DNA from: a virus
Taxonomy: Duplodnaviria > Caudoviricetes
Virus record (IMG/VR): IMGVR_UViG_3300012167_000014
Coordinates: 1 to 50,201 of that record
Reading direction: 5' to 3' (one strand)
DNA length: 50,201 nucleotides
Numbering within the stretch: position 1 is the first letter of the stretch; every line of letters begins with the position of its first letter. Under the pieces are notes generated by a model. That model worked only from the letters and a program-made list of their open reading frames with translations. It did not search any database and was not told the origin of the DNA. The position numbers were made by a program, and so were the translations under genes. Below are positions 8,745-44,834 of this stretch, piece by piece.

Positions 8745-8761
8745 TGTTCACAGTCTGAACA
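8745..8761. promoter_or_regulatory. 17-bp palindrome TGTTCACAGTCTGAACA
   Basis: Intergenic, immediately before the lysozyme SD. Confidence 0.75.
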
Positions 8762-8770
8762 GGAAATAGT

Positions 8771-9244
8771 ATGGATATCCCACGATTGATCGAACGTCTC
8801 AAGCTAGATGAAGGCTGGAGTGCTGTCATCTATATTGACGATACAGGGAATCTCACGATAGGTTTTGGCTACAACCTGGGGAAGCTTATCCTTCCTGAGG
8901 GTATAGACCTTAAGCTTGTTTCAGTGAAACCTGTTAATGGGATATCCAAGGAAATAGGAGAACTTCTTCTAAGTGGTTTCTTAATGAAGCTCCTTATTGA
9001 TCTTACGATCAAGCTTCCTTGGCTTAAAAACCTCGATGATGTACGTCAAAGAGTCATTGCGAATATGGCCTATAACCTAGGTGTAGATGGGTTGCTGCTC
9101 TGGCCAATATTCCTACGGCAGACGAGAAATGGTGAGTGGCTAAAGGCTGCACACAATATGCGCTCCACTCGCTGGTTTCGTCAAGTGGGATCTCGTGGAA
9201 GACGCTTGGCGAACATGATGGAAACGGGTAAGGACCCAGAATAA
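8771..9244 (+). CDS. Lysozyme/endolysin (glycoside hydrolase family 24, T4-lysozyme-like)
   Basis: Catalytic E-x8-D-x5-T pattern in DEGWSAVIYIDDTGNLTIGFG, plus NMAYNLG and S.W..QVG.R. Confidence 0.88.
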   Translation: MDIPRLIERLKLDEGWSAVIYIDDTGNLTIGFGYNLGKLILPEGIDLKLVSVKPVNGISKEIGELLLSGFLMKLLIDLTIKLPWLKNLDDVRQRVIANMAYNLGVDGLLLWPIFLRQTRNGEWLKAAHNMRSTRWFRQVGSRGRRLANMMETGKDPE

Positions 9245-17679: not shown

Positions 17680-17696
17680 CGTTCAGGGAGTGAACA
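17680..17696. promoter_or_regulatory. 17-bp palindrome CGTTCAGGGAGTGAACA
   Basis: Intergenic; the spacer contains the GGGAG SD of ORF 17701. Confidence 0.7.
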
Positions 17697-20197: not shown

Positions 20198-20953
20198 TTA
20201 TCCAACCTTGTATTTCTTGAGGTCCTTGTAGTTATCGCCTACCTCAATATCACAGGGGATAACAATAGATCCCCTGGAAAGTGAACACCCTGAGAAGTCA
20301 ATTGGTTCTTCCATGACCTCCTTACCGTAAGCTGCGACCTCTGAAATGTTGGCAGTAGGAAGATCCACGCAGAAGGCATCATGTGCTTCAAGGATGATAC
20401 GCAACCAAGGAAACTTCTTCTTCATCTTCAACATGGAGAACTTCGTCTTGTCCGACACATCAGCCTGAGGAATGTAGGAGTACATCTCCCTGTATAGATC
20501 CTCATTGAGACGATCCGCGAAATACCTTACTCGTCCATGAGCCGTTCGCACTGTTCGCGTACTATGAGCAATAGACTTAATAGCAGGCCAATAAACCTCT
20601 GAGATCTTTGGGCACTTCTCATCCATGATCTTGATAATTTGTTTAGCCCTCCATTCACTAATCTGAATATCAATGTGAAACCGACGAGCGTTCGTGTTCG
20701 CTTCGAGCATGAGCTTATGAGGTGAAGTTCCATAAGGGTAAGCGTGACGACCAATCTTACCAATATGACGCTCAGGCGGTTCTTTACCTTTTTCTTTAGT
20801 GTAATTCTTTTCATCACCACCGAAAATATATTGTGCTGTTCTTGCATGAGGATCTATACCTTGTTCAAACCAGGATAAAAGTTCTTCATCTTGGGAAAGA
20901 ATAGCAACAACTCGAGTTTCTGCTTGGGATAAGTCAAAATTCATGAAAGGCAT
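20198..20953 (-). CDS. DNA polymerase family A, C-terminal polymerase fragment (motifs A, B, C)
   Basis: NFDLSQAETRVVA (A), RHIGKIGRHAYPYG (B), LEAHDAF (C). Confidence 0.9.
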   Translation of the reverse strand: MPFMNFDLSQAETRVVAILSQDEELLSWFEQGIDPHARTAQYIFGGDEKNYTKEKGKEPPERHIGKIGRHAYPYGTSPHKLMLEANTNARRFHIDIQISEWRAKQIIKIMDEKCPKISEVYWPAIKSIAHSTRTVRTAHGRVRYFADRLNEDLYREMYSYIPQADVSDKTKFSMLKMKKKFPWLRIILEAHDAFCVDLPTANISEVAAYGKEVMEEPIDFSGCSLSRGSIVIPCDIEVGDNYKDLKKYKVG

Positions 20954-21262
20954 TTAAGCCCTCATTAAAAGGTTCTGACTATGAGTCATAGCTGAGAGAC
21001 AAGCAGGGCTTATGCAATGTCTATAGGGACAAGACTTTGCATGTCCTATCTCTTTATCCATAGGAATAGGACCTACGAAAGTTTCATAAGAAAGCTTATG
21101 TGCTGTTACAGTTTTACATCTTACTCCTCTTTTATTTTTTGTTGCAGCTTTAGCATATCCTGTTTTCTTATCTATATACCTTTTCCAGAGCCAATGAATA
21201 TCTATAAAATCTACTCGATCTAAAATGTAGTCTGAGTTAGCTTCATCTTTCATTACATTCAT
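20954..21262 (-). mobile_element. Free-standing HNH homing endonuclease (HNH_3-like, probably degenerate) inserted in polA
   Basis: AHKLSYETFVGPIP..EIGH..C..RHCISPACL..MTHSQN; markedly AT-rich; sits exactly between the two polA halves. Confidence 0.8.
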
Positions 21263-21263
21263 A

Positions 21264-22919
21264 TCATTCAAAGTCCGACACAAACATGCGTCGGATGTCT
21301 CCCCCTAGATCACCATGCTTGGTGATACTGTGAAACGACATGCCCATCTCATGAGCCCTTACAGGTTTCTTGAGGATGGCAGTGGATGTACGTCCTGCCT
21401 CAGTACCTACGATCCTGTAGGATGTACGCATCCTACCATCGTAGTCAACACGTGCAGCTATCTTCGATCGAGCGTTCTTGATACGTCGAACGTCTATTAT
21501 CTTACCCAGGATAAGCTTTCTCTTCTCATCCTTTACAGCGTTGGCAGAGAGAGCAACGAGGACATCCTCGTCCACGCAGAGGACACCCTTCTTGAATCTC
21601 TTGGGGAGTTTCAGTTGTTCGTAGAGGAGGAACCGTATCTGCTTGACTGATCCACAGTTGATAGGATAGCCTATCAGCTCGAAGAGTTCATCCTCAGTCT
21701 TAAGCTGCATGTCTACGTACTTCGAGTACAGCTGATCCCTAACGTCGAAGTCAACCTTGAATCCCCAACCTTCCATCTCATGGTAGAGATCATGGAGAGG
21801 TTGTATCTTCTCGAAGTAGAGGTCCTTCATCCCCAGCTCAACGAGTTCCTTCATAAGACACTCGTAGACTTCGAAGGTGACTGCCGCGTCTCTAGCGTTG
21901 TAGATGAGTACATCCGTGAGTCTCCTCTTTCCCATGTCGAAGAGCTGCCACTCATCCTTGTAGTAAGGCTCACGAGTGTAGATGGATGTGAAGAACTCGA
22001 GGGCTCCAGGGAACTCGGGGTTAACCGTCTTTCCCAGGATCATCGTATCCACATAGAGCTTAAGGCGGAAGCCTAAGCACTCTAGCTTACGTTGGTCATA
22101 CTTGAAATTCTGTCCGATGAAGAGCATCGACTCATCTCGGAAGAATGCATCAAGCAGTCTCCAAATCTCAGCCATTTCTGAGCCTGAGATGTCAAAAGTT
22201 TTGTCGAAGTGCTTGAGATTGAACAGGGGAATAGAGAGTGCTGCATGACGGGAGAACGCGATGGAGATACAAAAGGGAACAACTCCTTCAGTGTCTAAGG
22301 CAGCTATCTTGTTTTCCCTGTTTCTTTGAAGGAAGTCGTAGACATCTGTGAATCTCTTAGCGTAGTTGAGATTTCTCCTCGGCAGCTCAAGCTCTCTAGT
22401 AAGAGACTCTTCAACAGCCCTGTTGAAGTCAAGCTGCATGTAGATCTTTGATGAGTACGGAAAGGCTCCCTTCTCACCTCTCCTCTCAAAGAGGTTAGCA
22501 GGATGGATGGAGGGAACTACCTTGATGTTGTGATAGAGAGCAGGAAGGATGGAACCCCTCCACTTGGTGATTCCATTCTCTCCTGTGATCGTACTAAGAG
22601 CTAGGTTCCCGAGAGCTAATATGCAATTAGCCTCAGTGAGAGCCTTAAACTCTTCCCAGAGTTCAGGGATACCTTCTTCTATGGTATGCCCAGTCTGGTG
22701 TGCTAGATAGAGCTTGTTCCCAGGAGGATGATACTTGAAGACATTCGTGAACCAACAGGACTCAGGTGACATGCCTGCTTGACGAAGCATGTTCCTTGTC
22801 TCTTGTCCTGTTGGTCCTACGAATGGCCTCTGTGCCTCTTCCTCTTGCTTACCACCTGCTTCACCACAGACGATAAGTTTTGCTGACCCCGAGCCATAGC
22901 CCGGAATGTAAATGCTCAC
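21264..22919 (-). CDS. Family 4 uracil-DNA glycosylase-like domain fused to PolA 3'-5' exonuclease and N-terminal polymerase region
   Basis: CGEAGG..PFVG..TNVFKYHPPGN..HPA (UDG4); ALDTEG, QNFKYD, YNARDA (Exo I-III); GTEAGRTS; ends IRRMFVSDFE just before motif A. Confidence 0.88.
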   Translation of the reverse strand: MSIYIPGYGSGSAKLIVCGEAGGKQEEEAQRPFVGPTGQETRNMLRQAGMSPESCWFTNVFKYHPPGNKLYLAHQTGHTIEEGIPELWEEFKALTEANCILALGNLALSTITGENGITKWRGSILPALYHNIKVVPSIHPANLFERRGEKGAFPYSSKIYMQLDFNRAVEESLTRELELPRRNLNYAKRFTDVYDFLQRNRENKIAALDTEGVVPFCISIAFSRHAALSIPLFNLKHFDKTFDISGSEMAEIWRLLDAFFRDESMLFIGQNFKYDQRKLECLGFRLKLYVDTMILGKTVNPEFPGALEFFTSIYTREPYYKDEWQLFDMGKRRLTDVLIYNARDAAVTFEVYECLMKELVELGMKDLYFEKIQPLHDLYHEMEGWGFKVDFDVRDQLYSKYVDMQLKTEDELFELIGYPINCGSVKQIRFLLYEQLKLPKRFKKGVLCVDEDVLVALSANAVKDEKRKLILGKIIDVRRIKNARSKIAARVDYDGRMRTSYRIVGTEAGRTSTAILKKPVRAHEMGMSFHSITKHGDLGGDIRRMFVSDFE

Positions 22920-23275
22920 CTCTGCATCGCAGTCTTGATGTGAGCGATCGCTCGGTTCACATCTTCAATAGCGTATCCAGTAGGGTTTGACTTGCTCCTC
23001 TCAAGATCATCGACGGCGTGCTTGAGGATGTCGAGATCCTCACGAGTGAAACGATCGTCAATGAGTTCGAGCTTGAAAGCCTCCTTGAGGGCTCGATAGA
23101 CGTCTCTCAAGACCTCGTCTTTCTGTTCTCGATCCTCCTTGATGGTATCCCACTTGAGCTCTCCAGCAGTTTGCTTGATAGCATCAATGAGAATTTCCTC
23201 AGCCATATCGTAATCAGGAAAGATCTCGATGGCTTTCACAGCTGCAGACTTGAGTTCTTCAACGCTTAGTTTCAT
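22916..23275 (-). CDS. Hypothetical protein
   Basis: 119 aa, GAGGAG SD. Confidence 0.65.
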   Translation of the reverse strand: MKLSVEELKSAAVKAIEIFPDYDMAEEILIDAIKQTAGELKWDTIKEDREQKDEVLRDVYRALKEAFKLELIDDRFTREDLDILKHAVDDLERSKSNPTGYAIEDVNRAIAHIKTAMQR

Positions 23276-23510
23276 ATCTCCTCGACCAGGTTATCCGACG
23301 GGTTCCACAGTGAAAACAGGGAGAATCCCACCTATTGACCAACTTAAGTTTATTAAGTTGTTCGAGTAGCTTCCGAACGCTCTGGGAAGTGCTACCAATT
23401 CCCTTTGCGATCTGAGCTGCCGTTTGAAGAGCGGAAACTTTTCCGTTCTCTAAGTAATCAAGGATTGATTTTTGTTTCTCCAGTCTTAAGTCGTTCCCTA
23501 ACTTGCTCAT
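23259..23510 (-). CDS. Small winged-helix DNA-binding protein
   Basis: ILDYL..TAAQIAKGIGSTSQSVRKLLEQL..LV wHTH pattern, with CFHC in the wing. Confidence 0.6.
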   Translation of the reverse strand: MSKLGNDLRLEKQKSILDYLENGKVSALQTAAQIAKGIGSTSQSVRKLLEQLNKLKLVNRWDSPCFHCGTRRITWSRRYETKR

Positions 23511-24726
23511 AGAAAGTCCTATCCCTTTCAATACCTATCCAGCGGCGAGAGAGACGTTTGCAGGCTTCAAGGTGAGAGCCGGAGCCAGCAAAAGGATCTA
23601 GCACGATAGCACCTTCGTTCGTGCAATCCTCAACCAGTGCCTCAATAAGCTCAACTGGTTTCTCGTTGGGGTGGGTAAGACAGACAGGAGCAAGTGGAGG
23701 AAAGACGAAGACGGAAGACTGCTGTGTGGACTCTATGAGTGAGGGAGTCCCCTTGACTGCGAGTAAGATAAGCTCGAAGTCTCTGGAGTATTCCCAGGGT
23801 CTGGCTCCTTTACTGAGAACTACTCCATGGAGTCGACTATCTCTGAGTTCTTTCTTGACCCAGATCAGAGGAGTCTTGCTAACCGTAAAGCCGAAGGTAG
23901 CCAGATTCCTACTGTAACTACGATAGTCCTCCAGACCACAGAACAGATAGACGAAAGAGTCTGGACGCAAGACTCTAAAGACTTCCTTGAAGACTGGAAC
24001 AGTCTCATCATCTCGGGTGAGCTTGGCATCGATGTACCTCAACCAGGGTGGATCGGTGATGCAGGCGTCAAAGACTCCATCAGGGAAGCGCTTGAGGATA
24101 TCGACGGAGGAACCATTGTAGACCTGATCTACCTTGAAGTCTACTGGACGTTCGGCATCCTCCTCTGCCTCGATACGTCTCGCTGCGTTCCTGACCAAGC
24201 GGACGGCGGTATCTCGATCCTTGATATTACGTAGGGACGCATCACGTTTGACCGCGTTATCGAGCATGACCGCTTCAGACACGAATCCGAGAGAAATCCC
24301 AAGCTGAGCAGCAGTATCACGCATCGACCAGCCCGGGTTCTCGCGCGAAGCCTTTCCTCTCTTAGCTTCGCTTGCGCCAAGGTCCATCTGCTTCGTCGCG
24401 TGCCAAGATGATACAAGCTCACAGATTTCCCACCAGGGGAGATTGGTTCGCTTGAGATTTTCTTCAATGGTAACAAGCGTGATCTCCTTCTCATCCCCCA
24501 TTACGACTCGGCAGGGAAGCTCTGAGATGCCGAGTAGAGAGACGGCTTTGAGCCGCTTCTTCCCAGCGATTACCTTGAATCTACCGTTCAGAGCCTGAAC
24601 GGTAATGGGATTGAGCAACCCTCGTTCTTTGATCGACTCGGAGAGTTCTTGTATGAACTCACTCATCTCCAAGTCGTCACAGTCGATGAGGGACAGCTCG
24701 ATGTTCTGTGTAGGGAGTTCCTTCAC
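23458..24726 (-). CDS. ParB-like CTPase domain + HTH + beta-class N6-A/N4-C DNA methyltransferase fusion
   Basis: GTG start 24726 overlaps the DHH stop, with GGAGG SD. ELSESIKERGLLNPITV..IAGKKRLKA and EENLKR (ParB); SMRDTAAQLGISLGFVS (HTH); ITDPPW, HPNEKP, VLDPFAGSGS (MTase). Confidence 0.9.
   Translation of the reverse strand: MKELPTQNIELSLIDCDDLEMSEFIQELSESIKERGLLNPITVQALNGRFKVIAGKKRLKAVSLLGISELPCRVVMGDEKEITLVTIEENLKRTNLPWWEICELVSSWHATKQMDLGASEAKRGKASRENPGWSMRDTAAQLGISLGFVSEAVMLDNAVKRDASLRNIKDRDTAVRLVRNAARRIEAEEDAERPVDFKVDQVYNGSSVDILKRFPDGVFDACITDPPWLRYIDAKLTRDDETVPVFKEVFRVLRPDSFVYLFCGLEDYRSYSRNLATFGFTVSKTPLIWVKKELRDSRLHGVVLSKGARPWEYSRDFELILLAVKGTPSLIESTQQSSVFVFPPLAPVCLTHPNEKPVELIEALVEDCTNEGAIVLDPFAGSGSHLEACKRLSRRWIGIERDRTFYEQVRERLKTGETKINP
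24585..24601. promoter_or_regulatory. 17-bp palindrome CGTTCAGAGCCTGAACG inside the ParB domain coding sequence
   Basis: Arms extend to TACCGTTCAG/CTGAACGGTA. Confidence 0.7.
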
Positions 24727-26006: not shown

Positions 26007-26228
26007 TTAGACCTTGTCGGTGGGATCCTTCGGCGGGGCTTCGTCTTCGTCTTCCTCGCCATCCAGGTCCTCATCGTCTTCGTCATCGTCATCTTCTTCC
26101 AGATCGGGGTCCTCACCCTTCTCCTCCTTTTCCTCGATTTCCGCTTCCTTCTCGATCTGATCCTCAGTCGGCTCTTCGTCTGCCGACATCCGAATCTCCT
26201 GACCGTAGTTGTTGAACGCTCCACTCAT
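26007..26228 (-). CDS. Small, extremely acidic protein
   Basis: AGGAGG SD; 73 aa, about half Asp/Glu. Confidence 0.65.
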   Translation of the reverse strand: MSGAFNNYGQEIRMSADEEPTEDQIEKEAEIEEKEEKGEDPDLEEDDDDEDDEDLDGEEDEDEAPPKDPTDKV

Positions 26229-26347
26229 GTGTGTCCTCCTTAGGACAACGACGTAAAAGAGGGAGGGCAGGTTTCCTCTCGGAATAACCATTTCTTATAC
26301 GTTATCTCTCGTGCGCACTATGCAAGCTAGAGAGACCCCCCAGTGAC

Positions 26348-29740: not shown

Positions 29741-30189
29741 TTGGTTCTCCGATGCACATCGCGGGGTTGACCGCACCAGTACGGGCTATGCCCTTGCCCC
29801 GTAACGAAGTGACATCTGTCCGCTCCAACGCTGCACTCTACGAACTCATGTCCAAGCGGCAGCTTCTCGGGCTCCGATTCGCCGAGGGCGCGGCGAGCGG
29901 CATAGTGGTCCTGCATGTCCGAAAGGACTGGGCGACAACACCGATCCCAGCCAAGTTCCGCCTGACCACCCTTGGCAAAGTCGGGTGAGCCGGAACAGAA
30001 AATCAGGGCTTCGTGCATTCGGTCCAACAGTTCCAGCGCCTCCCGCCGCGCCTCCGCCTGGAGCTTCACGCGGTAGGCCGCGATGAACTCGGCCACCCGA
30101 GAAGTGGGATACCAAGGTCGGTCGGTGGCAGCGTTGATGGCCTTCGCCACTTCCCGGTCATCCTCGTTCGGCTCGACTCGCTCGGTCAT
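29737..30189 (-). CDS. Hypothetical protein (GC-rich cassette)
   Basis: GGGAGAG SD within a 15-bp repeat, ATG 30189. Confidence 0.55.
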   Translation of the reverse strand: MTERVEPNEDDREVAKAINAATDRPWYPTSRVAEFIAAYRVKLQAEARREALELLDRMHEALIFCSGSPDFAKGGQAELGWDRCCRPVLSDMQDHYAARRALGESEPEKLPLGHEFVECSVGADRCHFVTGQGHSPYWCGQPRDVHRRTK

Positions 30190-30485
30190 GGCTTCTCTCC
30201 CACTGAAATAATCAGTCTCTCGTCGCATTCAGCCGTACCGCCGACGCGCTCACAGCGCCACCGACCGCAGAAGTTGCAGACCTCCCGGCCCTGAGCGTCT
30301 CGGAAGACCGTATCGCTTCCCTTGTCTCCCGACGAGCACTCCGGGCACCTGACCACGGCCAGCGTTGCGGTTGGTGGGTCGTACGTGTCACGCATCGCGT
30401 TGGAGCACCGGCGATGACAGCGAGGACAGTACAGGTGGATCTTCCCTGCGCGATGCTTGTTGAACCCGACGTACTCCAGGCTCAC
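30186..30485 (-). CDS. Cys-rich hypothetical protein (three CxxC)
   Basis: CPRC, CPEC, CNFC; GTGA/ATGA coupling. Confidence 0.55.
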   Translation of the reverse strand: MSLEYVGFNKHRAGKIHLYCPRCHRRCSNAMRDTYDPPTATLAVVRCPECSSGDKGSDTVFRDAQGREVCNFCGRWRCERVGGTAECDERLIISVGEKP

Positions 30486-30808
30486 CCTTTCTCTCCCACT
30501 GAAGGGGCCGCATGGGCGGCATAGTGCTCGTCCAAAATCGCCAGCGCCTTCTTGAGCAACGGTCGGAGATCACGCTTGCCCCAGAACGTGACCGCGCTGG
30601 AGTCGTCGTCGCCGGGACGGTGAATGAAGGGGCCGCGCACTGTCTCGGTGGGACCGTCGCTGCCGTCTGGATTGCCCGGAGTGCGGCGCGGAATCGTCGC
30701 CGGGAGTTCAAGGTAGAACCGCACCGCCGTGAAGGTCAGGCCGTCGATTTCCTTGGAGATGATCTCCACGCGCTCCGTCATCTCCTCGGCGTAAATGTTG
30801 ACTCTCAT
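30482..30808 (-). CDS. Phage hypothetical protein (MRVNIYAEE...DDDSSAVTFWG)
   Basis: AGGAGGAG SD before ATG 30808. Confidence 0.65.
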   Translation of the reverse strand: MRVNIYAEEMTERVEIISKEIDGLTFTAVRFYLELPATIPRRTPGNPDGSDGPTETVRGPFIHRPGDDDSSAVTFWGKRDLRPLLKKALAILDEHYAAHAAPSVGEKG

Positions 30809-31051
30809 TTCTCCTCCTGATCGGCGTGCTCTTGAGGGGCGGCGCGGGCTAGGCAGCGCGACCAAATTGTCCCCTTCGTTCGGCTCTGGATCACTCATCG
30901 CTTGTACTCATCGACCGGAGCGAACTGGAAGAATCTGTACTCACGGATTCGATACTCCTTGTCACTCTCATCCCAGAGAAGGACAAAGACGTCGTTAGCA
31001 TCGAACAGGAGATAGTAGTTGTCCGTCTCGAGGAACTCCATCGTGCAGGTG

Positions 31052-31225
31052 TCAGGCATTGACGCTCTGCTTGGCCTTGAGGATGGCCCTATCGTACGCA
31101 CGGCCAAGAGGACCGTGCATGAGTTCCCTTCGGAGCTCTCGGTTGTATTTGGAGATCTTCTTCATCCAAGCTCGTCGCTCACGAAGGGCACGGCGGACTT
31201 TACGGTAGAGGTCTTTTCCTTTCAT
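31052..31225 (-). CDS. Small basic hypothetical protein
   Basis: MKGKDLYRKVRRALRERR..., coupled to its neighbour. Confidence 0.45.
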   Translation of the reverse strand: MKGKDLYRKVRRALRERRAWMKKISKYNRELRRELMHGPLGRAYDRAILKAKQSVNA

Positions 31226-31512
31226 ACATCCTTCCGATAGATAGACAGGGGGGAAACGAGCTTGAGGTCCTTGGTTTCCACCAAGAACCAATCCTTCTTC
31301 CTGCCTATTCCATCCTCGAGAAACTCGAACCTCTCATTGGAATCGAAGGCGACTCCAGCAGCCTTGAAAGCTCCGTTGTCCACGAGACAGACAGGGAAGG
31401 CATCGAGGTTGGAATAGTCCCAATCCCTCACGTCCTTCTCACTGATCTGGATTCCTTCCTTCTTGAGCCAGTCTTCCTTGCTCATATCCGGAGGATTGAC
31501 ATAGCAGCCCAG
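31222..31512 (-). CDS. Hypothetical protein (GCYVNPPDMSKEDWL...VCLVDNGAFKAAGVAF); start codon uncertain
   Basis: Globular-looking ORF; the codon following an AGGAAG SD is CTG. Confidence 0.5.
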   Translation of the reverse strand: MGCYVNPPDMSKEDWLKKEGIQISEKDVRDWDYSNLDAFPVCLVDNGAFKAAGVAFDSNERFEFLEDGIGRKKDWFLVETKDLKLVSPLSIYRKDV

Positions 31513-31513
31513 G

Positions 31514-31669
31514 TTAGACTTCCTTTCTAAAAAAGATAACAACATCACTAACGTCGAACTCGACTTGATCCAGATAGGCCTTAGCCATATCGAGACCTTC
31601 ACTCATCGTCTTACATTCCTTGTTGAATGTAATCTGTTGACGCGGAAACATGAGCACAATCTTCAACAT
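31514..31669 (-). CDS. Small hypothetical protein
   Basis: GGAGGT SD; a palindrome copy lies immediately upstream. Confidence 0.5.
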   Translation of the reverse strand: MLKIVLMFPRQQITFNKECKTMSEGLDMAKAYLDQVEFDVSDVVIFFRKEV

Positions 31670-31685
31670 GACATACCTCCCTTGG

Positions 31686-31702
31686 TGTTCAGACTCTGAA
31701 CA
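31686..31702. promoter_or_regulatory. 17-bp palindrome TGTTCAGACTCTGAACA
   Basis: Intergenic, after the SNF2 helicase stop. Confidence 0.75.
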
Positions 31703-31713
31703 GGAAACTCTAC

Positions 31714-33639
31714 CTATGGACGCCACCTCGCTCTTCCCTCGGTCACGAGCTTATTCATCATCTCAGCCATGACCTCGTTCTCTGTCAAGGCTACCCACTT
31801 CCCGTCCACCGTTGCGAGGTATCCCCTCTTACGCTCTACGATCTCGGTGAGGATCTCATCGACGGTTCCGAGAGCAATTGGGTACACGATGTTGACAGAT
31901 TGGGCAGTCGAACCAGGACGGGGGAACCTGGCCTCAGCCTGTTCCTCATTGGGGGGATTCCACTGACGTTCGTGGAGTACGGCGTCGGCACAGAATTGGA
32001 AGTTCTTCCCTTCCCCTGAGGCGAGTGTGGATGCGACGAGTACCCTACGCAGCGGATTGGTCTTGAACTCGTTCTCTATCTCTGCTGACTTGTCACCTGA
32101 GATACCTCCGAGGAGTCTGATAGTCGGAGCCAACCCTCTCTGCTTGAGTTCCTCGTCCAATCGACTCTGGATGAGAGTCCCCACAGCGACGTGGTGTACG
32201 AAGATAACGATCTTGGGCTTGGCGATGATCTTCAAGTCACCGTCTTCCAAGAGGAGCTTCTCTTCGTCATGTTCGTCGATCCAGTCAAGTACGTGCTCTA
32301 CGGTCGTCTCGACCTTGGCAATCCCTACGATCTGCCGTAGGCGCATGATGCTCTGTCCAACAGCTTGTTTGGCCTCAAACTTCGCCTGGCCAGTGACAGC
32401 TTCCGACTCATCGTATGCATCGAGGAAGGTGGACATCTCCTTGCGGTATGCTTCCTCGTCCTCATCCGTGAGAGCTGCGAAACGGTTCTGCCTGAAGATA
32501 CGCGGCAGATCAGGCATTACGTCTTCGCGCTTGTAGTCTACTGTGTAAGGCTTGGTGATCCTGGTGAATTTCTCATATGTCTTCTCCAGTAGCCCACCAA
32601 CGCGCAACCTACCCTGGTCGTCGTGGTAGTAATGCACGTATTCGTCGAAGAAGCGTTGACGGACACCGAAGTTGAGCGGATCGATGATGTTGAGAACGTT
32701 AAAGTATTCTCCAAAGTTGTTCTTGATGGGCTTACCAGAGAGTGCGATGAAGTGCTTCGCACGCTTCGCAAGCTCCTGCACCATCCTTGTACGCTGTGCA
32801 TCAGGGTTCTTGATGTGCTGAACCTCGTCGAAGATGACCGTCTTCGGTGCATACGAATCTAGCCACTTCAAACGCCTCAGTAAGTCCATAGAGACGATGA
32901 TGGCCTTGAACCCCTTCTCGGGACGCTCACGTGCAGTCATGATGATCTGTACTGGTTGGTTCGTCCACTCCAACCACTCCATCGCCCACTGTGTCGTCAT
33001 GGACGCCTTACACACAATGAGGATAGGCGAGAGCTCTTTGGAATACTTGAGCCCAAGCATTGCGCTAACGATCGTCTTCCCCAGTCCCATATCGAGCCTA
33101 ATGAGCGCTCGGAAACCCGCCTTAACGACCTTCTTGCAGGTTGTCTTCTGGTAAGGGAAAGGACGCTTATGGTGGAAGGATACGATGTCGTCGAACGAAC
33201 GAACGCTCTCAAGCTCGTTCGATACGAGATGCCCACATACAAGCGTGGTCACCTTCATCTTCACGAGCTTCATGTTTTCACCGTCCTCTTTAGGGACAGT
33301 GACAGTGATGTGGGATTCCTCAACTGCGGGCTTGCCGCACTCCTCACATTTGAGCTTGAGGATCGAGGTCTTCGCCTTGATGGGGGTTACTTCGATGATG
33401 GGTTGAGCAGGTGCTTCGGGCTTGTACTCGAATGGAGCCTTGAAGTCCTGTATGATCTCCTTGGCACTCATCCGATGCACTTGGACAACGACAGGCTCGG
33501 GCCAGAGCTTCTGGATGGCCTCATCCATGATAGCTCTAGTGGTAACGTCGAGTGGCTTAGGCTCCTCAACGAGCTTGGAAGAACGAGGGGCTCCCCCTTC
33601 GTCCTCCCAAGTCATCAAGTCTTTCCTGGTGTAATGCAT
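31714..33639 (-). CDS. SNF2-family (SF2) helicase
   Basis: DMGLGKT, FDEVQHIKN, LSGKPIKN, GEGKNFQ, WNPPNEEQAEARFPRPG. Confidence 0.9.
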   Translation of the reverse strand: MHYTRKDLMTWEDEGGAPRSSKLVEEPKPLDVTTRAIMDEAIQKLWPEPVVVQVHRMSAKEIIQDFKAPFEYKPEAPAQPIIEVTPIKAKTSILKLKCEECGKPAVEESHITVTVPKEDGENMKLVKMKVTTLVCGHLVSNELESVRSFDDIVSFHHKRPFPYQKTTCKKVVKAGFRALIRLDMGLGKTIVSAMLGLKYSKELSPILIVCKASMTTQWAMEWLEWTNQPVQIIMTARERPEKGFKAIIVSMDLLRRLKWLDSYAPKTVIFDEVQHIKNPDAQRTRMVQELAKRAKHFIALSGKPIKNNFGEYFNVLNIIDPLNFGVRQRFFDEYVHYYHDDQGRLRVGGLLEKTYEKFTRITKPYTVDYKREDVMPDLPRIFRQNRFAALTDEDEEAYRKEMSTFLDAYDESEAVTGQAKFEAKQAVGQSIMRLRQIVGIAKVETTVEHVLDWIDEHDEEKLLLEDGDLKIIAKPKIVIFVHHVAVGTLIQSRLDEELKQRGLAPTIRLLGGISGDKSAEIENEFKTNPLRRVLVASTLASGEGKNFQFCADAVLHERQWNPPNEEQAEARFPRPGSTAQSVNIVYPIALGTVDEILTEIVERKRGYLATVDGKWVALTENEVMAEMMNKLVTEGRARWRP

Positions 33640-33641
33640 AA

Positions 33642-34310
33642 CTACTCGGTGGGCTCAGGCGGGACAACGCCCGTCTCGAGAACCTCGGCAGCTGCCAAGC
33701 GATCCTCGATCTTCTTCATCCGCTTCTCAGCCTTCTCGCGGGTGATGCCGTACATCTTCATGACGGTTTCGATCGCGTCCGCTCCGAGTCCAGTACCTGG
33801 ACTCTTTCGAGCTTTCTTCGGAGCCGATGGGTCAACTTCCTTCGGCGTGGCCTTCGGTTTGTACGACATCTCCCTGAGCTTCAGTGCATCCCGTTGTTCC
33901 TTCTTCAGGGTGATGCGACGTTCCTCCAGGGTCTTCTTGGCAGCCTGAGTTGCCACCTTGATACGAATGGAGGCTTGCCTGAGCCGCTCGATATGGTCCA
34001 CGAGGGTTTCAGGGTCCATCTTCACTACGACGTTTGCCGAGCGAACAAAGAGCTTCATGTATTCCTCAGGCGTGAGGTCTGGCTCCTGTCCACTGACTTT
34101 GAGACCATCTTCCATCGCGTTACCTAGCTTTCCTTGACACCCGCCACACGTTGGCAGGTCAAAAGGCAACCACTCGATCCCTCTTTCGAGAGAAGTGAGT
34201 CCACCACAAAGGGATCTGAAACCGTTAGCCCACTCTGTGAGGACATGAATCCGACCCTCAAGGCCCTTGGCACCGTCAACCCTACCGACTCTGAAGGGTT
34301 CTTGTGACAT
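33642..34310 (-). CDS. Hypothetical protein
   Basis: 222-aa ORF in the early operon. Confidence 0.65.
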   Translation of the reverse strand: MSQEPFRVGRVDGAKGLEGRIHVLTEWANGFRSLCGGLTSLERGIEWLPFDLPTCGGCQGKLGNAMEDGLKVSGQEPDLTPEEYMKLFVRSANVVVKMDPETLVDHIERLRQASIRIKVATQAAKKTLEERRITLKKEQRDALKLREMSYKPKATPKEVDPSAPKKARKSPGTGLGADAIETVMKMYGITREKAEKRMKKIEDRLAAAEVLETGVVPPEPTE

Positions 34311-34569
34311 TGTCCACTACCTGTGCACCGTGGGCCTCTGCACACCGAAGTGCTTCAGTCCTGGCACGCTCACGGATCTGCTTGAACCGCTTGAGACGCT
34401 CGTTACGCGCGTCCTCAGCCTCACCCTCCGGTGTGGACTTCTTGAACCACCAGAAGGCATACGCTGTGATGCGCTTGTAGACCCTCACGGCTTTCCTCGT
34501 AGTGTTGAGGACAGTGTTCGACCCGTGAAAGGTCTTCTTCGACGTTCGCTTCTTGTCTGTGTTTGCCAT
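34282..34569 (-). CDS. Basic hypothetical protein
   Basis: TAATG coupling. Confidence 0.5.
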   Translation of the reverse strand: MANTDKKRTSKKTFHGSNTVLNTTRKAVRVYKRITAYAFWWFKKSTPEGEAEDARNERLKRFKQIRERARTEALRCAEAHGAQVVDNVTRTLQSR

Positions 34570-35036
34570 TAGCCTTTCTCGGGAGTGGATGTACGGTCCT
34601 GTTCAGACTCTGAACGGATAAGGTCACGAATTACGTCATTTTGAATCTCATCCAGCGTCTTAGGCTTTGGACGAGCTTCCATCTCTTTCTCATATTCCTC
34701 TTCGACTGCGTCTTTCGCTTCTCTTGGAGGAAGTAAAGCAAAGATGCCCTTAAGTGAGATATCTTTCGCTACTGGCGAGAGTCGAGCATCTAAATTGGCT
34801 TGAACCTGCTCTTCACAACGCCCACAACGAATCTTTGCCATCAAGAGATCCTTCCCCGTGATGACAAACTCGTTTCCACAAGTATCATAAAAGCAGCGAA
34901 CCGTTCGCCCAATCATGAGTTCCTTGTTGTAGATACAGTTAGGACAGTCGAGGCACTTCCAGAGCTCTGTGCCTTTCTTGGTCGTCATCCTTCGGTATCG
35001 GTGATGTTCGCACCGAGCACCCTTCTTTAACGTCAT
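34569..35036 (-). CDS. Cys/His-rich (zinc-binding) hypothetical protein
   Basis: CEHH, CLDCPNC, CFYDTC, CGRC. Confidence 0.65.
   Translation of the reverse strand: MTLKKGARCEHHRYRRMTTKKGTELWKCLDCPNCIYNKELMIGRTVRCFYDTCGNEFVITGKDLLMAKIRCGRCEEQVQANLDARLSPVAKDISLKGIFALLPPREAKDAVEEEYEKEMEARPKPKTLDEIQNDVIRDLIRSESEQDRTSTPEKG
34600..34616. promoter_or_regulatory. 17-bp palindrome TGTTCAGACTCTGAACG
   Basis: Inside the 3' end of ORF 34569..35036. Confidence 0.7.
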
Positions 35037-35235
35037 TAGCTCTCTCCCGTCCTTTCTAGCTTGGAGACACTCGCTGGAGTCTCCAAGATGGAAACTACGA
35101 GGGGACCTTCGGGTTTTCCACGCTGTCCCAGTACTGCCGAATCTCCTCAGCAGCGTTGGCCAGGTGCTTCCAGCCCTCTCTCAGGAAGGCGTCCCGCGTC
35201 TCTTCCCAGAACTTGGTCATCATATCTAGCTCTCC

Positions 35236-35532
35236 TTAGTTTGAGCGGATTCCCTGAGCTTCATGGAGGATGGCAACGGCCTCAGAGAGACTACACTGTG
35301 CTCTCTCCCTAATTCGTGTCACGCATGAGATTGAGCCCTTTTCGTTGTAGATCTTCACCTCCTCTGCTTCGAGCTTGTGGGATGCAACCAGGGGCTTCTT
35401 GAATCCCTTACGCTGAGGACATCCATCGACATTGTGAGCACGATGTGCCTTTGTGTAGGTCTCAGGTGTCATCGACATGATCTCTTCCTGAGTGTCAGGG
35501 AAGCTCATGCCGCACAACGGACAGTTGACCAT
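35236..35532 (-). CDS. Zinc-knuckle protein with C-terminal ribosomal bL12 CTD-like motif
   Basis: CPLCG at the N-terminus; ISCVTRIRERAQCSLSEAVAIL resembles the I.AIK..RE.TG.GL.EAK motif. Confidence 0.5.
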   Translation of the reverse strand: MVNCPLCGMSFPDTQEEIMSMTPETYTKAHRAHNVDGCPQRKGFKKPLVASHKLEAEEVKIYNEKGSISCVTRIRERAQCSLSEAVAILHEAQGIRSN

Positions 35533-35825
35533 TAGCTCTCCTTCACTACGCCGATGATCAGCTCGACGCTCGTCGTCTTCGGGGTCAATCCCCACTTCAG
35601 GAAGAAGTAGGCGAGGTCGTGGGCAAGCTGCATCTCTGCCGCCATCGCTGTGGCTACTTCCCTATCAGAGAGGTTACCATCCTTCGCGAGGAGGTTGAGA
35701 GCGGTTGAAACGAGTACGATCGTCACAGCTCGCTGTTCCTGTGAGCGCATACCCACGGGGGTCTTCAGGATAGGCTTCCCAAGCCTACCAATGAGGTCGA
35801 GTGCTGCTCTGGTATCGGGGCTCAT
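35532..35825 (-). CDS. Hypothetical protein
   Basis: 97 aa, coupled on both sides. Confidence 0.55.
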   Translation of the reverse strand: MSPDTRAALDLIGRLGKPILKTPVGMRSQEQRAVTIVLVSTALNLLAKDGNLSDREVATAMAAEMQLAHDLAYFFLKWGLTPKTTSVELIIGVVKES

Positions 35826-36166
35826 GAGTTCAGCTCCAAGCCCTCATCATGATCCCGATCCACTCGTGTACTGATACGAGCGCCAGGAAGACGGCGGTAG
35901 ACCCCATTCCAGGGAGAAAAGCCCTTTCGCAGATACCACTTCTCCAGTTGTTCATAGGAGAGCCCATTGGAAGGACTAATCTCGAGGAAGAGCGTGATGT
36001 TATCCTTATCGGCATCTGCAAGGATCGAGTCCAAAAGCCTTGACCCTACACCCTTGCCACGGCTTGCGATAGGGACGTTGATCCTTGTGAGGATCATCCC
36101 GTGACCATAGTAGTCACAGAGGTCCGCTGTCGAGTTCGACTCACGGTCATAGTAGTAGCTCTTCAC
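35822..36166 (-). CDS. GNAT-family acetyltransferase
   Basis: INVPIASRGKGVGSRLL acetyl-CoA motif A, WYLRKGF; AAAGGA SD. Confidence 0.85.
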   Translation of the reverse strand: MKSYYYDRESNSTADLCDYYGHGMILTRINVPIASRGKGVGSRLLDSILADADKDNITLFLEISPSNGLSYEQLEKWYLRKGFSPWNGVYRRLPGARISTRVDRDHDEGLELNS

Positions 36167-36289
36167 ACTATCCTTTCTTAGCGAGAAGGGTTGAAACCAG
36201 GGAAAAACCCGTATGCGCCCAAGGGGTCACCCTGCATTCCCCCTGCAGAACCCGGGCTATCCCCCTGCATTCTGCAGGCGCCCCTCTTT

Positions 36290-36590
36290 CGCGTAAACCC
36301 TTTGGAATCAATCACTTAGCGCCTCTAGGGGAGCTAGTACCCGCCCTCCCCCAACCCCAATATAGGCTTGGGGAAGGCCAATGTCAAGTCTCATTTTGGG
36401 GGAAACCGACAATCCGGGGAACCCGAGGGAATTTTCTAATTGCCTTATTAGTTCTTAAAAACACAAAAAAAAAATAGAACAACAACACGAAAAACCGCAG
36501 TAAAGTCGGGGTACGAATGAGCGTACAAACACGGTCGGGGGAGGGTGGGGGCTAGAAGGCTAAGTGCTTTATTTCCAGTGAGTTAGACCC
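36290..36590 (+). other. Candidate replication origin/control locus
   Basis: A-rich core (about 36430-36500) flanked by inverted, related 25-bp dyads at 36294-36318 and 36561-36585; no long ORF. Confidence 0.45.
36359..36387 (-). promoter_or_regulatory. Sigma70-type early promoter (TTGACA-17-TATATT)
   Basis: The minus strand reads TTGACA ttggccttccccaagcc TATATT, about 190 nt upstream of the GNAT gene. Confidence 0.8.
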
Positions 36591-36715
36591 GTCCTGACCC
36601 CCTGTAGACTGCCGGGGTAATGCCCGGTGATTGCACGGGGAGTGCTCGGGAACCCAATGGGAGATAAATGCTTCAGGGCTGAAGTATGCTATCGACGGAA
36701 AAAAGAGGCCAACCT

Positions 36716-36732
36716 TGTTCAGGGTCTGAACA
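36716..36732. promoter_or_regulatory. 17-bp palindrome TGTTCAGGGTCTGAACA
   Basis: In the large non-coding control region. Confidence 0.75.
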
Positions 36733-36825
36733 GCAATAAGACGGTTGGAATTGACAGGCGTATCCAGCTCTTAAGCGGTTGGATAGGAGGGCGGGAGTTG
36801 GAGTGCTGGCCTGAGCCCTAGACGC

Positions 36826-36864
36826 ACGAAACCCTGGGAGGGTGCTCTCTCCCAGGGAGTCGTG
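36826..36864 (-). terminator. Stem-loop downstream of gene 36881..37399
   Basis: CCCTGGGAG/CTCCCAGGG 9-bp stem followed by TTTC on the minus strand. Confidence 0.5.
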
Positions 36865-36880
36865 TCCGGTAGGTTGTCAG

Positions 36881-37399
36881 TTACGCGTCGTCTTCCGTCT
36901 CATCGTCTTCCGACTCCGCAGCCTCGCGCATGAGCTTGGCTGCGGCCAGGGCCTTCGCCTCGCTCTTGAACCGACCCTGCTTCATCAGCAACGCGGCCAG
37001 TCGCTTGTCCGCAGCCTCGGGGTCCACGAACCCGGATTCGTAAGCCACCCGGATCTTGCTGCGCCGTTGCAGCCCGTAAGCGTAATCCAGGAGCCCCGCG
37101 AAGGGGTTGTCCGCCGGGACCTCGTCACCGTCGTCATTCTTGACCGTGCCCTTGTTGGCCTCGATCAAGCTCCAGAGCTGCGCGGCAGCTTCCGGGGTGT
37201 CGAGCACGAACTCGACCTTGTTGAACGGCACGAACACCGTGTCTCCCTTGTTGGGCACATTCTTGACGGTGACACTCACCGCCTCGCCGTTTGCCTTCTT
37301 GGACACGAACCGTGCCAGGCCCGCCTCGACTGCCTTGATTGCCCAAGGCGTGTGAACATCCGCGTCTGCGACGGAATCCAACGTCTTCTTTTCGGTCAT
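36881..37399 (-). CDS. Hypothetical early protein with acidic tail
   Basis: 172 aa, high GC3; first gene on the leftward arm. Confidence 0.75.
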   Translation of the reverse strand: MTEKKTLDSVADADVHTPWAIKAVEAGLARFVSKKANGEAVSVTVKNVPNKGDTVFVPFNKVEFVLDTPEAAAQLWSLIEANKGTVKNDDGDEVPADNPFAGLLDYAYGLQRRSKIRVAYESGFVDPEAADKRLAALLMKQGRFKSEAKALAAAKLMREAAESEDDETEDDA

Positions 37400-37513
37400 G
37401 GTCCTATCATCCTTTCAAAGAGCGTCTGCGCGAGCGTTCGCCCGCTGTCTACAAGGTGCGGCCCGGCAGCCAGAATAGCAAGGGAAATATGCCCGACCCG
37501 CAAATAAACTTCT

Positions 37514-37576
37514 GTGTCAAAACAGACACAGCCCCCCGTCCAGGCCCGGCAAACTTTCCCGTGTCAAAACGCACAC
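37514..37576. repeat. Direct repeat GTGTCAAAAC-NN-ACAC x2 (37514-37529, 37561-37576)
   Basis: Read directly; each copy contains TTGACA on the minus strand. Confidence 0.6.
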
Positions 37577-37799
37577 ACTCACTCGTCGATGCGATCCGTA
37601 AACTTGGATTACTTAACCCAAGGGGATGGATAGTCCGATCCAACCCCCCGGACGGACCAGAGCGGGTCCCATGTCGGCCGGGGGGACGGATCGTGCAACG
37701 CTCGCGTTTTCACTTTCTCCAAATCAAAATCTGGTTGGAATTCTCTACCAAGGAATGGGTCCCATATTCTCATACCTCGATTCGCTACCAAGGATCAGG

Positions 37800-37816
37800 T
37801 GTTCATAGTCTGAACA
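37800..37816. promoter_or_regulatory. 17-bp palindrome TGTTCATAGTCTGAACA
   Basis: About 43 bp upstream of the late promoter -35 box. Confidence 0.75.
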
Positions 37817-37858
37817 GATGTTTATTTGCTGTTCAACCGGGAAACCTTGTTCAGGGCC

Positions 37859-37887
37859 TTGACAAAAATGAGCCACGGGCGTATCTT
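37859..37887 (+). promoter_or_regulatory. Sigma70-type promoter for the late operon (TTGACA-17-TATCTT)
   Basis: TTGACA 37859-37864 and TATCTT 37882-37887, 70 nt before the terS ATG. Confidence 0.7.
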
Positions 37888-37956
37888 CTCAGTGGGGGCT
37901 TTACGCCTCTTTGCCGGATCGAAGGGTTCACGGGGCTTACGCCCCAGAGAATACTC

Positions 37957-38541
37957 ATGGAGATCTCGAACGAAGACGCCGAAGCCCTCCTTTCTAACCC
38001 ACGTAATGGGGGTCCCCTCTTCTCTCGTTCTCTAATCTCTGAGAAAGAAGTCACCTATGAGCCTCTCCACAAGGGTACGAGGAACGGCGGCAGAGAAGTC
38101 CCGCCTCTTATGCGGGAACTCATCGGAGTCTCTGCACATAGAGACACTCTTGCTAACACAGCTGGAGCCTTTGACGTTAGTGTAAGTACCGTAGCACAAG
38201 CGAAGAAGGGGAATGTGGGCGTAGCCCGTCACGATGCGGATCTTGCGTCCCGTATCGAGAAACAGGTCGGGAAGGATGCAAAAGCAGTCAAGGATCTTGC
38301 GCTTGAGAGGCTTGCAGGGATGTTCGCCTCTGCGATCACTCAAGACAAACTCGACGCTATCCCGAAGGTTAGGGAAGCAGTCACCGTCGCGAGGGAACTT
38401 GCAGGCATCGCGTCCTCACTTACGGAAAAGAAGGAAGGTGGGAACGTAGCGGTCTTCATCCAGTATCCTCGGATAAAGGATGAAAAGGAATACGATGCAG
38501 TCGATCTTATCCACATTCCCGATAAGAAGAAGGTCGACTGA
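37957..38541 (+). CDS. Putative terminase small subunit
   Basis: Immediately upstream of terL with TGATG coupling; HTH-like TAGAFDVSVSTVAQ. The upstream extension in the ORF track is probably non-coding. Confidence 0.55.
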   Translation: MEISNEDAEALLSNPRNGGPLFSRSLISEKEVTYEPLHKGTRNGGREVPPLMRELIGVSAHRDTLANTAGAFDVSVSTVAQAKKGNVGVARHDADLASRIEKQVGKDAKAVKDLALERLAGMFASAITQDKLDAIPKVREAVTVARELAGIASSLTEKKEGGNVAVFIQYPRIKDEKEYDAVDLIHIPDKKKVD

Positions 38542-40196: not shown

Positions 40197-40400
40197 GAGG
40201 CTCGAGCTGGATCTTGCACACGAACGGTCGCTTAACGCTCAGTTGGTTGCACTCATGACGCCATCTTACAAGACGCTTCCGGTGATTCCTGAGGACTCTC
40301 CCTTGATTTCTCAACAGCCGGAGGCTATTTCTCGAGGCGTCCGTACTTTGAGTCACATGAAGCGTCGTGCAGCCGACATACTTCGATCAAAGGAGAAGGA

Positions 40401-41860: not shown

Positions 41861-41884
41861 ACAACCAAGCCCCCAGGGAAGGAG

Positions 41885-41914
41885 TGGGGGGTGGGAAACT
41901 ATCCCCCATTTTTT
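41885..41914 (+). terminator. Rho-independent terminator
   Basis: TGGGGGGTGG-GAAA-CTATCCCCCA stem with GNRA loop, followed by T6. Confidence 0.7.
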
Positions 41915-41916
41915 GA

Positions 41917-44833: not shown

Positions 44834-44834
44834 C

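Follow-up and report, generated by a model that had tools for sequence, protein, structure and literature searches.

A ParB–methyltransferase fusion gene of a phage and its probable parS-like palindromes

A phage gene joining a ParB module to a DNA methyltransferase

The DNA analysed here, hereafter the window, is the whole of the 50,201-nt IMG/VR virus record IMGVR_UViG_3300012167_000014 (Duplodnaviria; Caudoviricetes), i.e. a 50.2-kb phage contig rated complete, without terminal repeat. Its gene P0001 (23458–24726, minus strand, 422 aa) encodes a fusion of a ParB-like domain, a helix-turn-helix (HTH) and a DNA methyltransferase, and carries within its own coding sequence one copy of a palindrome that recurs along the genome. 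The gene starts with GTG, overlapping the TGA stop codon of an upstream open reading frame (ORF) for a DHH phosphoesterase, and the relatives begin with M/V-K-E-L at the equivalent position.

A preliminary description of the stretch, drawn from the sequence alone, had recognised in the protein a ParB N-terminal domain with the peptides GLLNPITV, IAGKKRLKA and EENLKR, an HTH and a complete beta-class amino-methyltransferase with DPPW and FAGSGS; all five peptides are found in the translation, and the three domains hold up. The ParB N-terminal (CTPase-fold) domain, matched by Pfam family PF02195 (ParB_N), spans residues 22–91 (24454–24663, minus strand; E 1.5e-10, 41.4 bits against a cut-off of 26.3). 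Its Box II, G55-x-x-R58-x-x-A61 within IAGKKRLKA, is an intact GxxRxxA, and Box III is E89-N90-L-K-R93 within EENLKR (ENxxR). Among 52 relatives of 41–73 % identity, none deviates at G55, R58, E89 or R93, and at least 90 % agree at A61 and N90; the HTH residues T138 and A139 as well as DPPW and FAGSGS are also invariant.

No Pfam HTH model matched the fusion protein, and the ParB-type HTH (residues ~133–161; 24244–24330, minus strand) is assigned from structure prediction. The AlphaFold2 model built on the 52 relatives (pLDDT 90, pTM 0.78) has HTH helices at residues 135–142 and 146–161, then a long helix (171–191) leading into the methylase. By Foldseek, the N-terminal half aligns over 191–198 columns with Noc and ParB constructs that comprise the N-domain and the DNA-binding domain (DBD), i.e. 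7nfu_B (E 1.4e-10, 198 columns), 7bm8_A and 7bnk_A, and a search of the family profile against PDB sequences returned for this half Noc (7ng0, 7.4e-20), Spo0J, ParB and KorB (8qa8, 5.2e-7). The recognition helix reads I-S-L-G-F-V-S-E-A-V-M-L.

That the ParB-like domain is instead a nuclease or nickase, in keeping with its former designation 'ParB-like nuclease domain', and the protein a cut-and-protect fusion whose methylase shields the phage DNA, is in our view very unlikely. There is a precedent in a Bacillus cereus prophage, whose ParB–methyltransferase fusion is described with non-specific DNA nicking in the available part of PMC3592412, and several of the PHROGs families matched by the window protein are named 'ParB-like partition nuclease'. 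However, the closest solved relatives of the N-terminal half are the CTP-binding clamps Noc, ParB and Spo0J, with the match running through the DBD, conservation falls on the residues of the nucleotide pocket, and a non-specific nickase would leave the conserved family of sites described below unexplained.

The C-terminal half is a beta-class N6/N4 DNA methyltransferase domain (residues 220–409; 23500–24069, minus strand; PF01555, N6_N4_Mtase, E 5.2e-24, 85.9 bits against a cut-off of 26.7), the class being assigned because DPPW (225–228) comes ahead of FxGxG (here FAGSGS, 379–384). We take the Asp of DPPW to point to adenine N6 as the target; the N4-cytosine enzyme 8s9o likewise ranks high in Foldseek for this half. 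The profile search against PDB found DpnA/M1.HpyAVI (5hek, 4.5e-26) and CcrM (6pbd, 1e-19), and Foldseek M1.HpyAVI (5hfj, 5.6e-16), CcrM (6pbd, 2.5e-15), M.BceJIV and M.RsrI. In PHROGs, the protein matches both methyltransferases (phrog_67, phrog_498) and ParB-like families (phrog_3264, phrog_4715).

The family is large, with 528 matches at E <=0.001, the best 120 of which are nearly all ParB_N plus N6_N4_Mtase proteins of ~400–445 aa. A query with the N-terminal 200 residues found 258 cluster representatives at <=1e-10; among the best 150, most have 380–480 aa with the match at the N-terminus, which indicates that the ParB-HTH module occurs nearly always in fused form. Among cultured or named phages, the best identity is 27 % (Desulfofustis phage LS06-2018-MD01). 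A search of 185,579 species genomes returned no close relative, with full-length matches at 23–28 % identity and methylase-domain matches at up to 36 % (most at 24–34 %), and so the sub-family is not a prophage family in those genomes.

A palindrome recurring inside and outside the gene

The pattern GTTCAG-N3-CTGAAC (GTTCAGNNNCTGAAC), allowing at most one mismatch, has 11 matches in the window against 0.22 expected, and in 100 shuffles the largest count was 3, none reaching 11. Nine of the matches are convincing copies (starting at 1600, 8746, 17681, 24586, 31687, 34601, 36717, 37801 and 43211) and two are doubtful (9852 and 43576); many are extended to TGTTCAG-N3-CTGAACA or beyond. A spacing of ~7–9 kb had been proposed, which fits the first five sites, at intervals of 7146, 8935, 6905 and 7101 bp, whereas the remaining sites are closer together.

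As the preliminary description had it, one copy lies within the ParB domain of the fusion gene itself. This copy, GTTCAGAGCCTGAAC at 24586–24600, or CGTTCAGAGCCTGAACG (24585–24601) as a 17-mer, reads GTT CAG GCT CTG AAC on the gene strand, i.e. V43 Q44 A45 L46 N47, just after Box I.

Of the dispersed copies, TGTTCAGACTCTGAACA (1599–1615) lies at the junction of the ORFs 952–1620 and 1630–2298, and the copy at 8745–8761 (one mismatch) fills the 28-bp gap between the ORFs 7486–8742 and 8771–9244. The copy at 17680–17696, with two mismatches to the 17-mer, follows directly upon the stop codon of a 1777-aa ORF, and that at 31686–31702, an exact 17-mer, is located between the stop of the helicase ORF and the next ribosome-binding site. 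A further copy (34600–34616) precedes the stop of ORF 34569–35036 by 32 nt, another exact 17-mer (36716–36732) sits in the divergent intergenic region 36167–36841, and a copy with one mismatch (37800–37816) is found near a degenerate one (37848–37864). The last (43210–43226) lies inside a 786-aa ORF (42473–44833, plus strand) of no known family, being the second intragenic palindrome; its imperfect arm CCGAAC and its flanks are kept in all four close relatives (G001–G004).

Two sigma-70-like promoter matches, 36359–36387 (minus strand, 11/12) and 37859–37887 (plus strand, 10/12), were seen in the two larger intergenic regions, and the −35 hexamer TTGACA of the second is overlapped by the degenerate palindrome copy; the count of promoter-like matches in that region is not above that of shuffles.

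Nucleotide-level selection on the in-gene copy

Four viral contigs carry orthologues of the fusion gene at 63–65 % protein identity (L001–L004), and all of them keep the palindrome at the same codons. In the set of five genes made up of these and the window (63–75 % amino acid and 60–68 % nucleotide identity among them), the codon alignment has 179 columns with an identical residue, of which only 16 keep one codon in all five. Four of these 16 are the palindrome codons GTT, CAG, CTG and AAC, which include the sole Val and Leu codons on the list.

The same picture emerges from a wider sample, i.e. 76 loci with full-length relatives found with the alignment as query and reduced to 49 representatives of less than 90 % identity. 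The palindrome-compatible peptide V-[QRHLP]-x-x-N is present in 26 of the 49, and 25 of these 26 have GTTC-N7-GAAC at the DNA level, against 4.4 % predicted from their own codon usage. The motif occurs in the 5' part of the gene in 28 of the 49 representatives, in 27 of them at nt 109–137, while four control patterns together gave 4 matches. In two loci, L111 (at ~2153) and L142 (at ~10086), the motif is found at the usual place in another reading frame, where it encodes C-S-P-N/D-E in place of V-R-x-x-N; this indicates that it is the DNA, and not the peptide, that is kept. From these comparisons, we conclude that the in-gene palindrome is under nucleotide-level selection.

Synteny, spacing and co-variation of the dispersed copies

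Allowing at most one mismatch, the related genomes G001, G002, G003 and G004 hold 8, 5, 8 and 9 copies, respectively, as compared to 0, 0, 0 and 1 for controls. When the nine window sites were mapped through flanking protein matches, a site was found in the syntenic interval for 8 of 9 in G001, 8 of 9 in G003 and 7 of 9 in G004, and for 5 of the 6 testable ones in the incomplete G002. For example, the copy at 1599–1615 is syntenic in G001, G003 and G004, the site behind the 1777-aa ORF recurs behind the same gene in these three genomes, syntenic copies are also known for the sites at 8745–8761 and 31686–31702, and the site inside the 786-aa ORF has the same flanks in G001–G004.

The layout is also even. 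The widest stretch without a site measures 7.8–9.7 kb in four complete genomes, and many spacings are 6.3–8.2 kb; with the genomes taken as circular, random placement yields so small a maximum with a probability of 0.0002–0.04, the four genomes sharing sites by descent and thus not being independent.

Distant clades keep the outer GTTC...GAAC and differ in the inner and flanking bases, and the site type changes along with the recognition helix: SLGF[IV]SEA goes with cctGTTCAG..CTGAACagg, ALGKTSQD with agctGTTCAY..RTGAACagct, and GPIAEDL with aactGTTCGS..GCGAACagtt. Within each clade, the copy in the gene and the dispersed copies share one site type. This co-variation follows the tree, because the phages share a syntenic core, and is therefore supportive, without being independent proof.

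Presence of the motif and of the gene among relatives

Relatives of the window's DNA polymerase were collected with an alignment query and the presence of the fusion gene was judged by tblastn, which gave 41 loci with a match (40 carried forward) and 30 without one that have at least 3 kb of upstream sequence; 9 more were not judgeable. The 32 non-redundant loci with the gene contain 43 motifs in 562 kb, i.e. 3.2 times the controls, and the 26 without it 8 motifs in 432 kb, i.e. 0.9 times the controls. Counting only motifs outside the gene, the comparison is 28 versus 8 (binomial P 0.007, uncorrected for relatedness). In the polymerase tree, 24 of the 26 gene-less loci belong to one clade.

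Two gene-less records are (nearly) complete genomes. G010, the record of locus L243, is complete (100 %), sister to the window's clade in the polymerase tree, and has neither a match to the family profile nor a single GTTC-N7-GAAC; G011, the record of L264, is 97 % complete and has no profile match and one motif. As a positive control for this profile search, the gene was found in 3 of 3 genomes known to carry it. In L243, the slot upstream of the polymerase is taken by small ORFs without Pfam match.

The sites probably act as DNA, not as RNA

Many copies either occupy a 25–30-bp gap that separates a stop codon from the following ribosome-binding site or are no more than ~55 nt away from a stop, and because of this placement a reading as RNA element or terminator had to be weighed. 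For eight of the nine sites, the 45-nt context is no more stable than its shuffles (z −0.99 to +1.15), the exception being the in-gene copy (z −3.3). A change in one arm has no matching change in the other (e.g. GTTCAT..CTGAAC and GTTCAG..CCGAAC), and the central triplet, which is ACT or AGT in 18 of 41 copies, bears no regular relation to the gene strand. A search of the window with Rfam at gathering thresholds returned nothing, and with only one copy in nine more stable than shuffles, an RNA element was rejected as the general explanation. The terminator reading was likewise discarded, as none of the terminator-like sites in 30000–45000 (10 sites against 12.1 expected) coincides with a palindrome copy. 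The two GTTCA half-sites are 10 bp apart, centre to centre, which fits a dimer of HTH domains. The comparisons thus favour a DNA signal, and short gaps and protein tails are the cheapest places for a 17-bp signal in a tightly packed genome.

A DNA site could still belong to something other than the fusion protein, i.e. to another DNA-binding protein of phage or host, or serve as a hairpin signal in RNA or DNA at gene ends. In favour of this are the position of many copies 0–55 nt from a stop codon or in the short gaps ahead of ribosome-binding sites, the several copies with arms extended to 9–10 bp, the good RNA fold of the in-gene copy, and the large share of phage ORFs without known family, which leaves room for another binder. 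Nevertheless, we consider it quite improbable: apart from the folding results, the uncompensated mismatches and the independence of gene strand, the position kept across the widest divergence is the one inside the fusion gene, even in another frame, and the motif drops to 0 and 1 copies in the two (nearly) complete relatives that lack this gene. One such candidate binder, a small HTH-like ORF adjacent to the fusion gene (23259–23531, minus strand), was dismissed, being conserved in none of nine relatives and having no Pfam or PHROGs match. Overlapping the fusion gene at the latter's 3' end, this 90-aa ORF is perhaps not a genuine gene.

Taken together, the palindromes are very probably cognate, parS-like sites of the fusion protein, because the in-gene copy shows signs of selection, helix and site co-vary, the dispersed copies are syntenic and evenly laid out, and the motif is no commoner than controls where the gene is missing.

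Genome context and possible partners

The fusion gene belongs to a leftward replication module with a primase, a family-A polymerase split by an HNH ORF, a Sak4-like protein, an exonuclease and a SNF2-type helicase, its own neighbours being the DHH phosphoesterase, small ORFs without assigned family and the DNA polymerase. The rightward structural genes include the large terminase, and most ORFs are without known family. The polymerase (20198–22919, minus strand) consists of two ORFs of 551 and 251 aa, both matching phrog_17, on either side of the HNH ORF (20954–21283); since L243 encodes its polymerase in one uninterrupted ORF of 824 aa, the HNH gene has the appearance of an insertion.

Neither a ParA nor a cognate restriction enzyme had been recognised in the preliminary description, and our searches agree. 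A six-frame search for ParA gave no match to PF13614 and a single sub-threshold one to PF01656 (13.6 bits against 25.4), located inside the Sak4-like ORF, and the N-terminus of the fusion protein, VKELPTQNIE, has no ParA-binding LG-R/K-GL motif. Among the 59 ORFs scanned against PHROGs, no restriction enzyme was recognised, the only nucleases named there being the HNH ORF within the polymerase gene and an exonuclease of recombination; most of these ORFs have no match at all, and therefore 'none recognised' is not to be read as 'absent'. The PHROGs scans of the window ORFs also revealed no KorA-like partner.

GATC and the palindromes GGATCC, ATCGAT, GAGCTC and AAGCTT are depleted in the window and in G001, G003 and G004, with z of about −3 to −5.6 for all five and about −3.8 to −5.6 for the 6-bp ones (z being an approximate Markov estimate). 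This suggests avoidance of restriction sites by the phage.

Some features of the window stand apart from these subjects. ORF 47230–47697 contains four to six tandem 48-nt units (72–73 % alike, encoding 16-residue repeats) at 47332–47625, and the short ORF 26007–26291 (minus strand) encodes a strongly acidic, Asp/Glu-rich tail. GAA/GAG-rich stretches of low complexity, in the latter ORF (26007–26291) and at 48117–48229, yield a long imperfect inverted repeat (I1).

A predicted methylase dimer and how the enzyme might work

When two copies of the fusion protein were modelled together, the prediction scored 0.70 against 0.00 for the best of three controls; of proteins solved as one-chain pairs, 20 of 30 reach the mark used, and of those solved as single chains, 1 of 23. 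Contact agreement between runs is at least 71 % and the pLDDT of the partner at least 78; the predicted interface is symmetric and lies wholly in the methylase domain (residues 258–341), including the nearly invariant W311-E312-Y313. Since solved structures of beta-class methylases contain several chains, the pass may reflect memory of such structures, and it stands for likeness rather than binding. If correct, a homodimer of methylase domains could replace the missing C-terminal dimerisation domain of ParB, and a topology in which this dimer forms a fixed gate and the ParB N-domains a nucleotide-operated one is plausible from the models.

It is tempting to speculate how such an enzyme would act. 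A pair of HTH domains would read the 15–17-bp palindrome (T)GTTCAG-N3-CTGAAC(A), and the palindromes, kept about every 7 kb and once in the gene, would act in the manner of parS to bring the enzyme onto phage DNA. Upon nucleotide binding, the two ParB N-domains would come together, with the far end of the dimer kept joined by the methylase domains, and the protein would close around the DNA. The closed protein would then depart from the site and diffuse along the DNA while methylating it, probably at adenine N6, as judged from DPPW. The outcome would be a modification restricted in cis and falling preferentially on the phage genome produced during the replication phase, which it may shield from restriction in a following host or label as self. 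Of all this, the analysis shows the domain architecture, the conservation of the nucleotide-binding motifs, the existence of the site family, the selection on its sequence and its tie to the gene; DNA binding, the binding of CTP or any other nucleotide and its identity, the closure of the clamp, sliding, the methylated base and its target, and the biological role are all inferred.

How far this goes is a matter of degree. Clamp sliding with spreading methylation is a tentative proposal, as is the full sequence of loading, sliding and methylating, for which we see a reasonable case that nonetheless falls short of a probable one. Its most specific form, i.e. a nucleotide-gated sliding-clamp methyltransferase loaded at parS-like palindromes ~7 kb apart and leaving a low-specificity mark confined in cis, is doubtful. 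The interpretation given in the preliminary description is therefore partly supported: the link between palindrome and gene has been strengthened by selection, co-variation, synteny and presence/absence across related sequences, while sliding, methylation decaying with distance and an anti-restriction or self-marking role are, as there, inferred.

Several observations weigh against a spreading methylase. Its support as regards binding, nucleotide use, sliding and methylation comes from sequence comparison and prediction; the canonical C-terminal dimerisation domain of ParB is absent, residues 200–422 being methyltransferase, and the dimer that would substitute for it is a predicted one. The exact in-gene motif is missing in 21 of the 49 representatives, some having a one-base variant (L092, L146, G007), and one sub-clade with intact protein motifs has almost no GTTC-N7-GAAC, so that function does not depend on the exact motif everywhere. 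With 24 of the 26 gene-less loci in one clade, the presence/absence contrast amounts mostly to one event, plus two independent cases, and whole genomes co-diverge along with helix and site. The placement at gene junctions beside ribosome-binding sites would also suit a regulatory element. A blanket protection by methylation would make the depletion of 6-bp palindromes unnecessary, which is a mild argument against such a role. Moreover, the nucleotide binders named in the available part of PMC12704722 include no N6/N4-methylase fusion, and the same source shows that a ParB fold may take ATP or GTP in place of CTP, the sequence not predicting which.

In a different account, the ParB-HTH part is no more than a long recognition domain and the enzyme leaves its marks in or beside the ~ten palindromes, without sliding, the nucleotide switch only tuning the binding. 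Such marks could time transcription, replication or packaging, or allow autoregulation through the in-gene copy, and an autoregulated methylase might well keep a site inside its own gene. All evidence tying the sites to the gene applies equally here; sites are found at gene junctions and in a divergent promoter region, and the methylase domain has ~200 residues like M1.HpyAVI and so may need an added DNA-reading module. On the other hand, the nucleotide-binding and catalytic motifs of ParB are all invariant across the family, which would be superfluous in a module that does nothing but read DNA, an even spread of ~7 kb without a large gap is unexpected for promoter-linked marks, and most sites leave no room for a promoter before the next start codon. 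We thus judge this account unlikely, although not negligible.

About equally unlikely appears an organiser in the manner of KorB or Noc, whose ParB-HTH part loads at the palindromes and spreads from there, so as to silence transcription or set its timing, or to compact the DNA or position it, with the methylase as a passenger, i.e. an orphan enzyme for a short motif acting independently of the sites. The layout, ~ten palindromes over a ~50-kb replicon, is that of other ParB-family proteins, KorB is among the matches of the family profile, and one degenerate copy overlaps a −35 hexamer; the depletion of restriction-type palindromes would fit a methylase that protects one short motif only. KorB is described in the available part of PMC11790492 as acting at long range on plasmid RK2. 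What speaks against an organiser with a passenger is that the fusion is constant, with one length class across 41–73 % identity, arguing that the two halves work together, and that neither a KorA-like nor a ParA partner was recognised in the scans of the window.

Relation to known systems

The fusion protein shares with ParB/parS systems the N-domain (GxxRxxA, ENLxR), the ParB-type HTH and, very probably, a cognate palindrome, here with TGTT...AACA ends and with one copy in the protein's own gene. In Bacillus subtilis, spo0J also has one parS copy inside its own gene. Unlike in those systems, no ParA and no ParA-binding motif were found, a methyltransferase takes the place of the C-terminal dimerisation domain, and the sites are evenly spread over the whole replicon instead of being clustered at a centromere, with 17 bp and a central base instead of 16 bp.

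RK2 carries 12 KorB operator sites. KorB is similar in that it belongs to the ParB family and has some ten palindromic sites dispersed over ~50–60 kb of replicon. It achieves silencing at long range and switches from a DNA-sliding clamp to a repressor (PMC11790492, available part). It differs in having its own dimerisation domain, the partners KorA, TrbA and IncC, none of which was recognised here, and no enzyme domain.

The best match of the N-terminal half in both sequence and structure is to Noc, a ParB paralogue with many dispersed sites and no role in partition. Noc tethers DNA to the membrane via an N-terminal helix, whereas in the phage protein a methylase is attached and no membrane-tethering role is in evidence.

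The small beta-class adenine methylases M1.HpyAVI/DpnA, CcrM and M.BceJIV have the same fold, motif order and SAM-binding FxGxG; they are stand-alone enzymes that read short motifs, while the window enzyme combines DPPW with a 200-residue ParB-HTH module. A ParB domain in the methylase M.EcoGIX was not borne out by the available part of PMC7736820, and this enzyme is not used for comparison.

That fusions of ParB and methyltransferase are known from phages, as the preliminary description stated, is confirmed by PMC12704722, which, in the part available, reports PF02195 plus PF01555 proteins, i.e. the Pfam architecture of the window protein, as frequent in phages and enriched in prophage regions, leaving their function open ('perhaps in anti-defense'). 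This part names no cognate DNA site for them and parS only for canonical ParB. Coupling of a phage ParB fold to post-replicative modification of double-stranded DNA (dsDNA) also has a parallel in a phage ParB homologue that activates a DNA-modifying thymine dioxygenase on dsDNA (PMC13229309, available part). However, that ParB is not fused to the enzyme, has a C-terminal dimerisation domain and lacks an obvious DBD, and according to the same part mutating its nucleotide-binding residues had no effect. In the literature searched, which did not cover the supplements of PMC12704722, we found no description of a site system or of spreading methylation for a ParB–methylase. Therefore, the fusion as such is already known in print, and the site system is what was not found there.

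Implications for the family

The ParB half of the common phage ParB–methylase fusions has no known purpose, as far as the available part of PMC12704722 goes, and the present family offers a concrete handle on it: a defined DNA site with a copy in the gene, clade-specific site variants that can be swapped, gene-less relatives and a predicted dimer geometry. The pair of site and protein could also serve as a tool for labelling DNA in a replicon-restricted way. Without spreading, there would still be a ParB/parS-like system lacking ParA in a phage genome of lytic type, which needs explanation. If methylation does spread from the sites, the principle of the CTP switch would be extended from moving or silencing DNA to marking it chemically, as the first case in which a ParB switch drives covalent modification of DNA. 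This would explain how a phage can afford a promiscuous methylase, and would represent a new way to discriminate self from host DNA, which may defeat many restriction systems at once.

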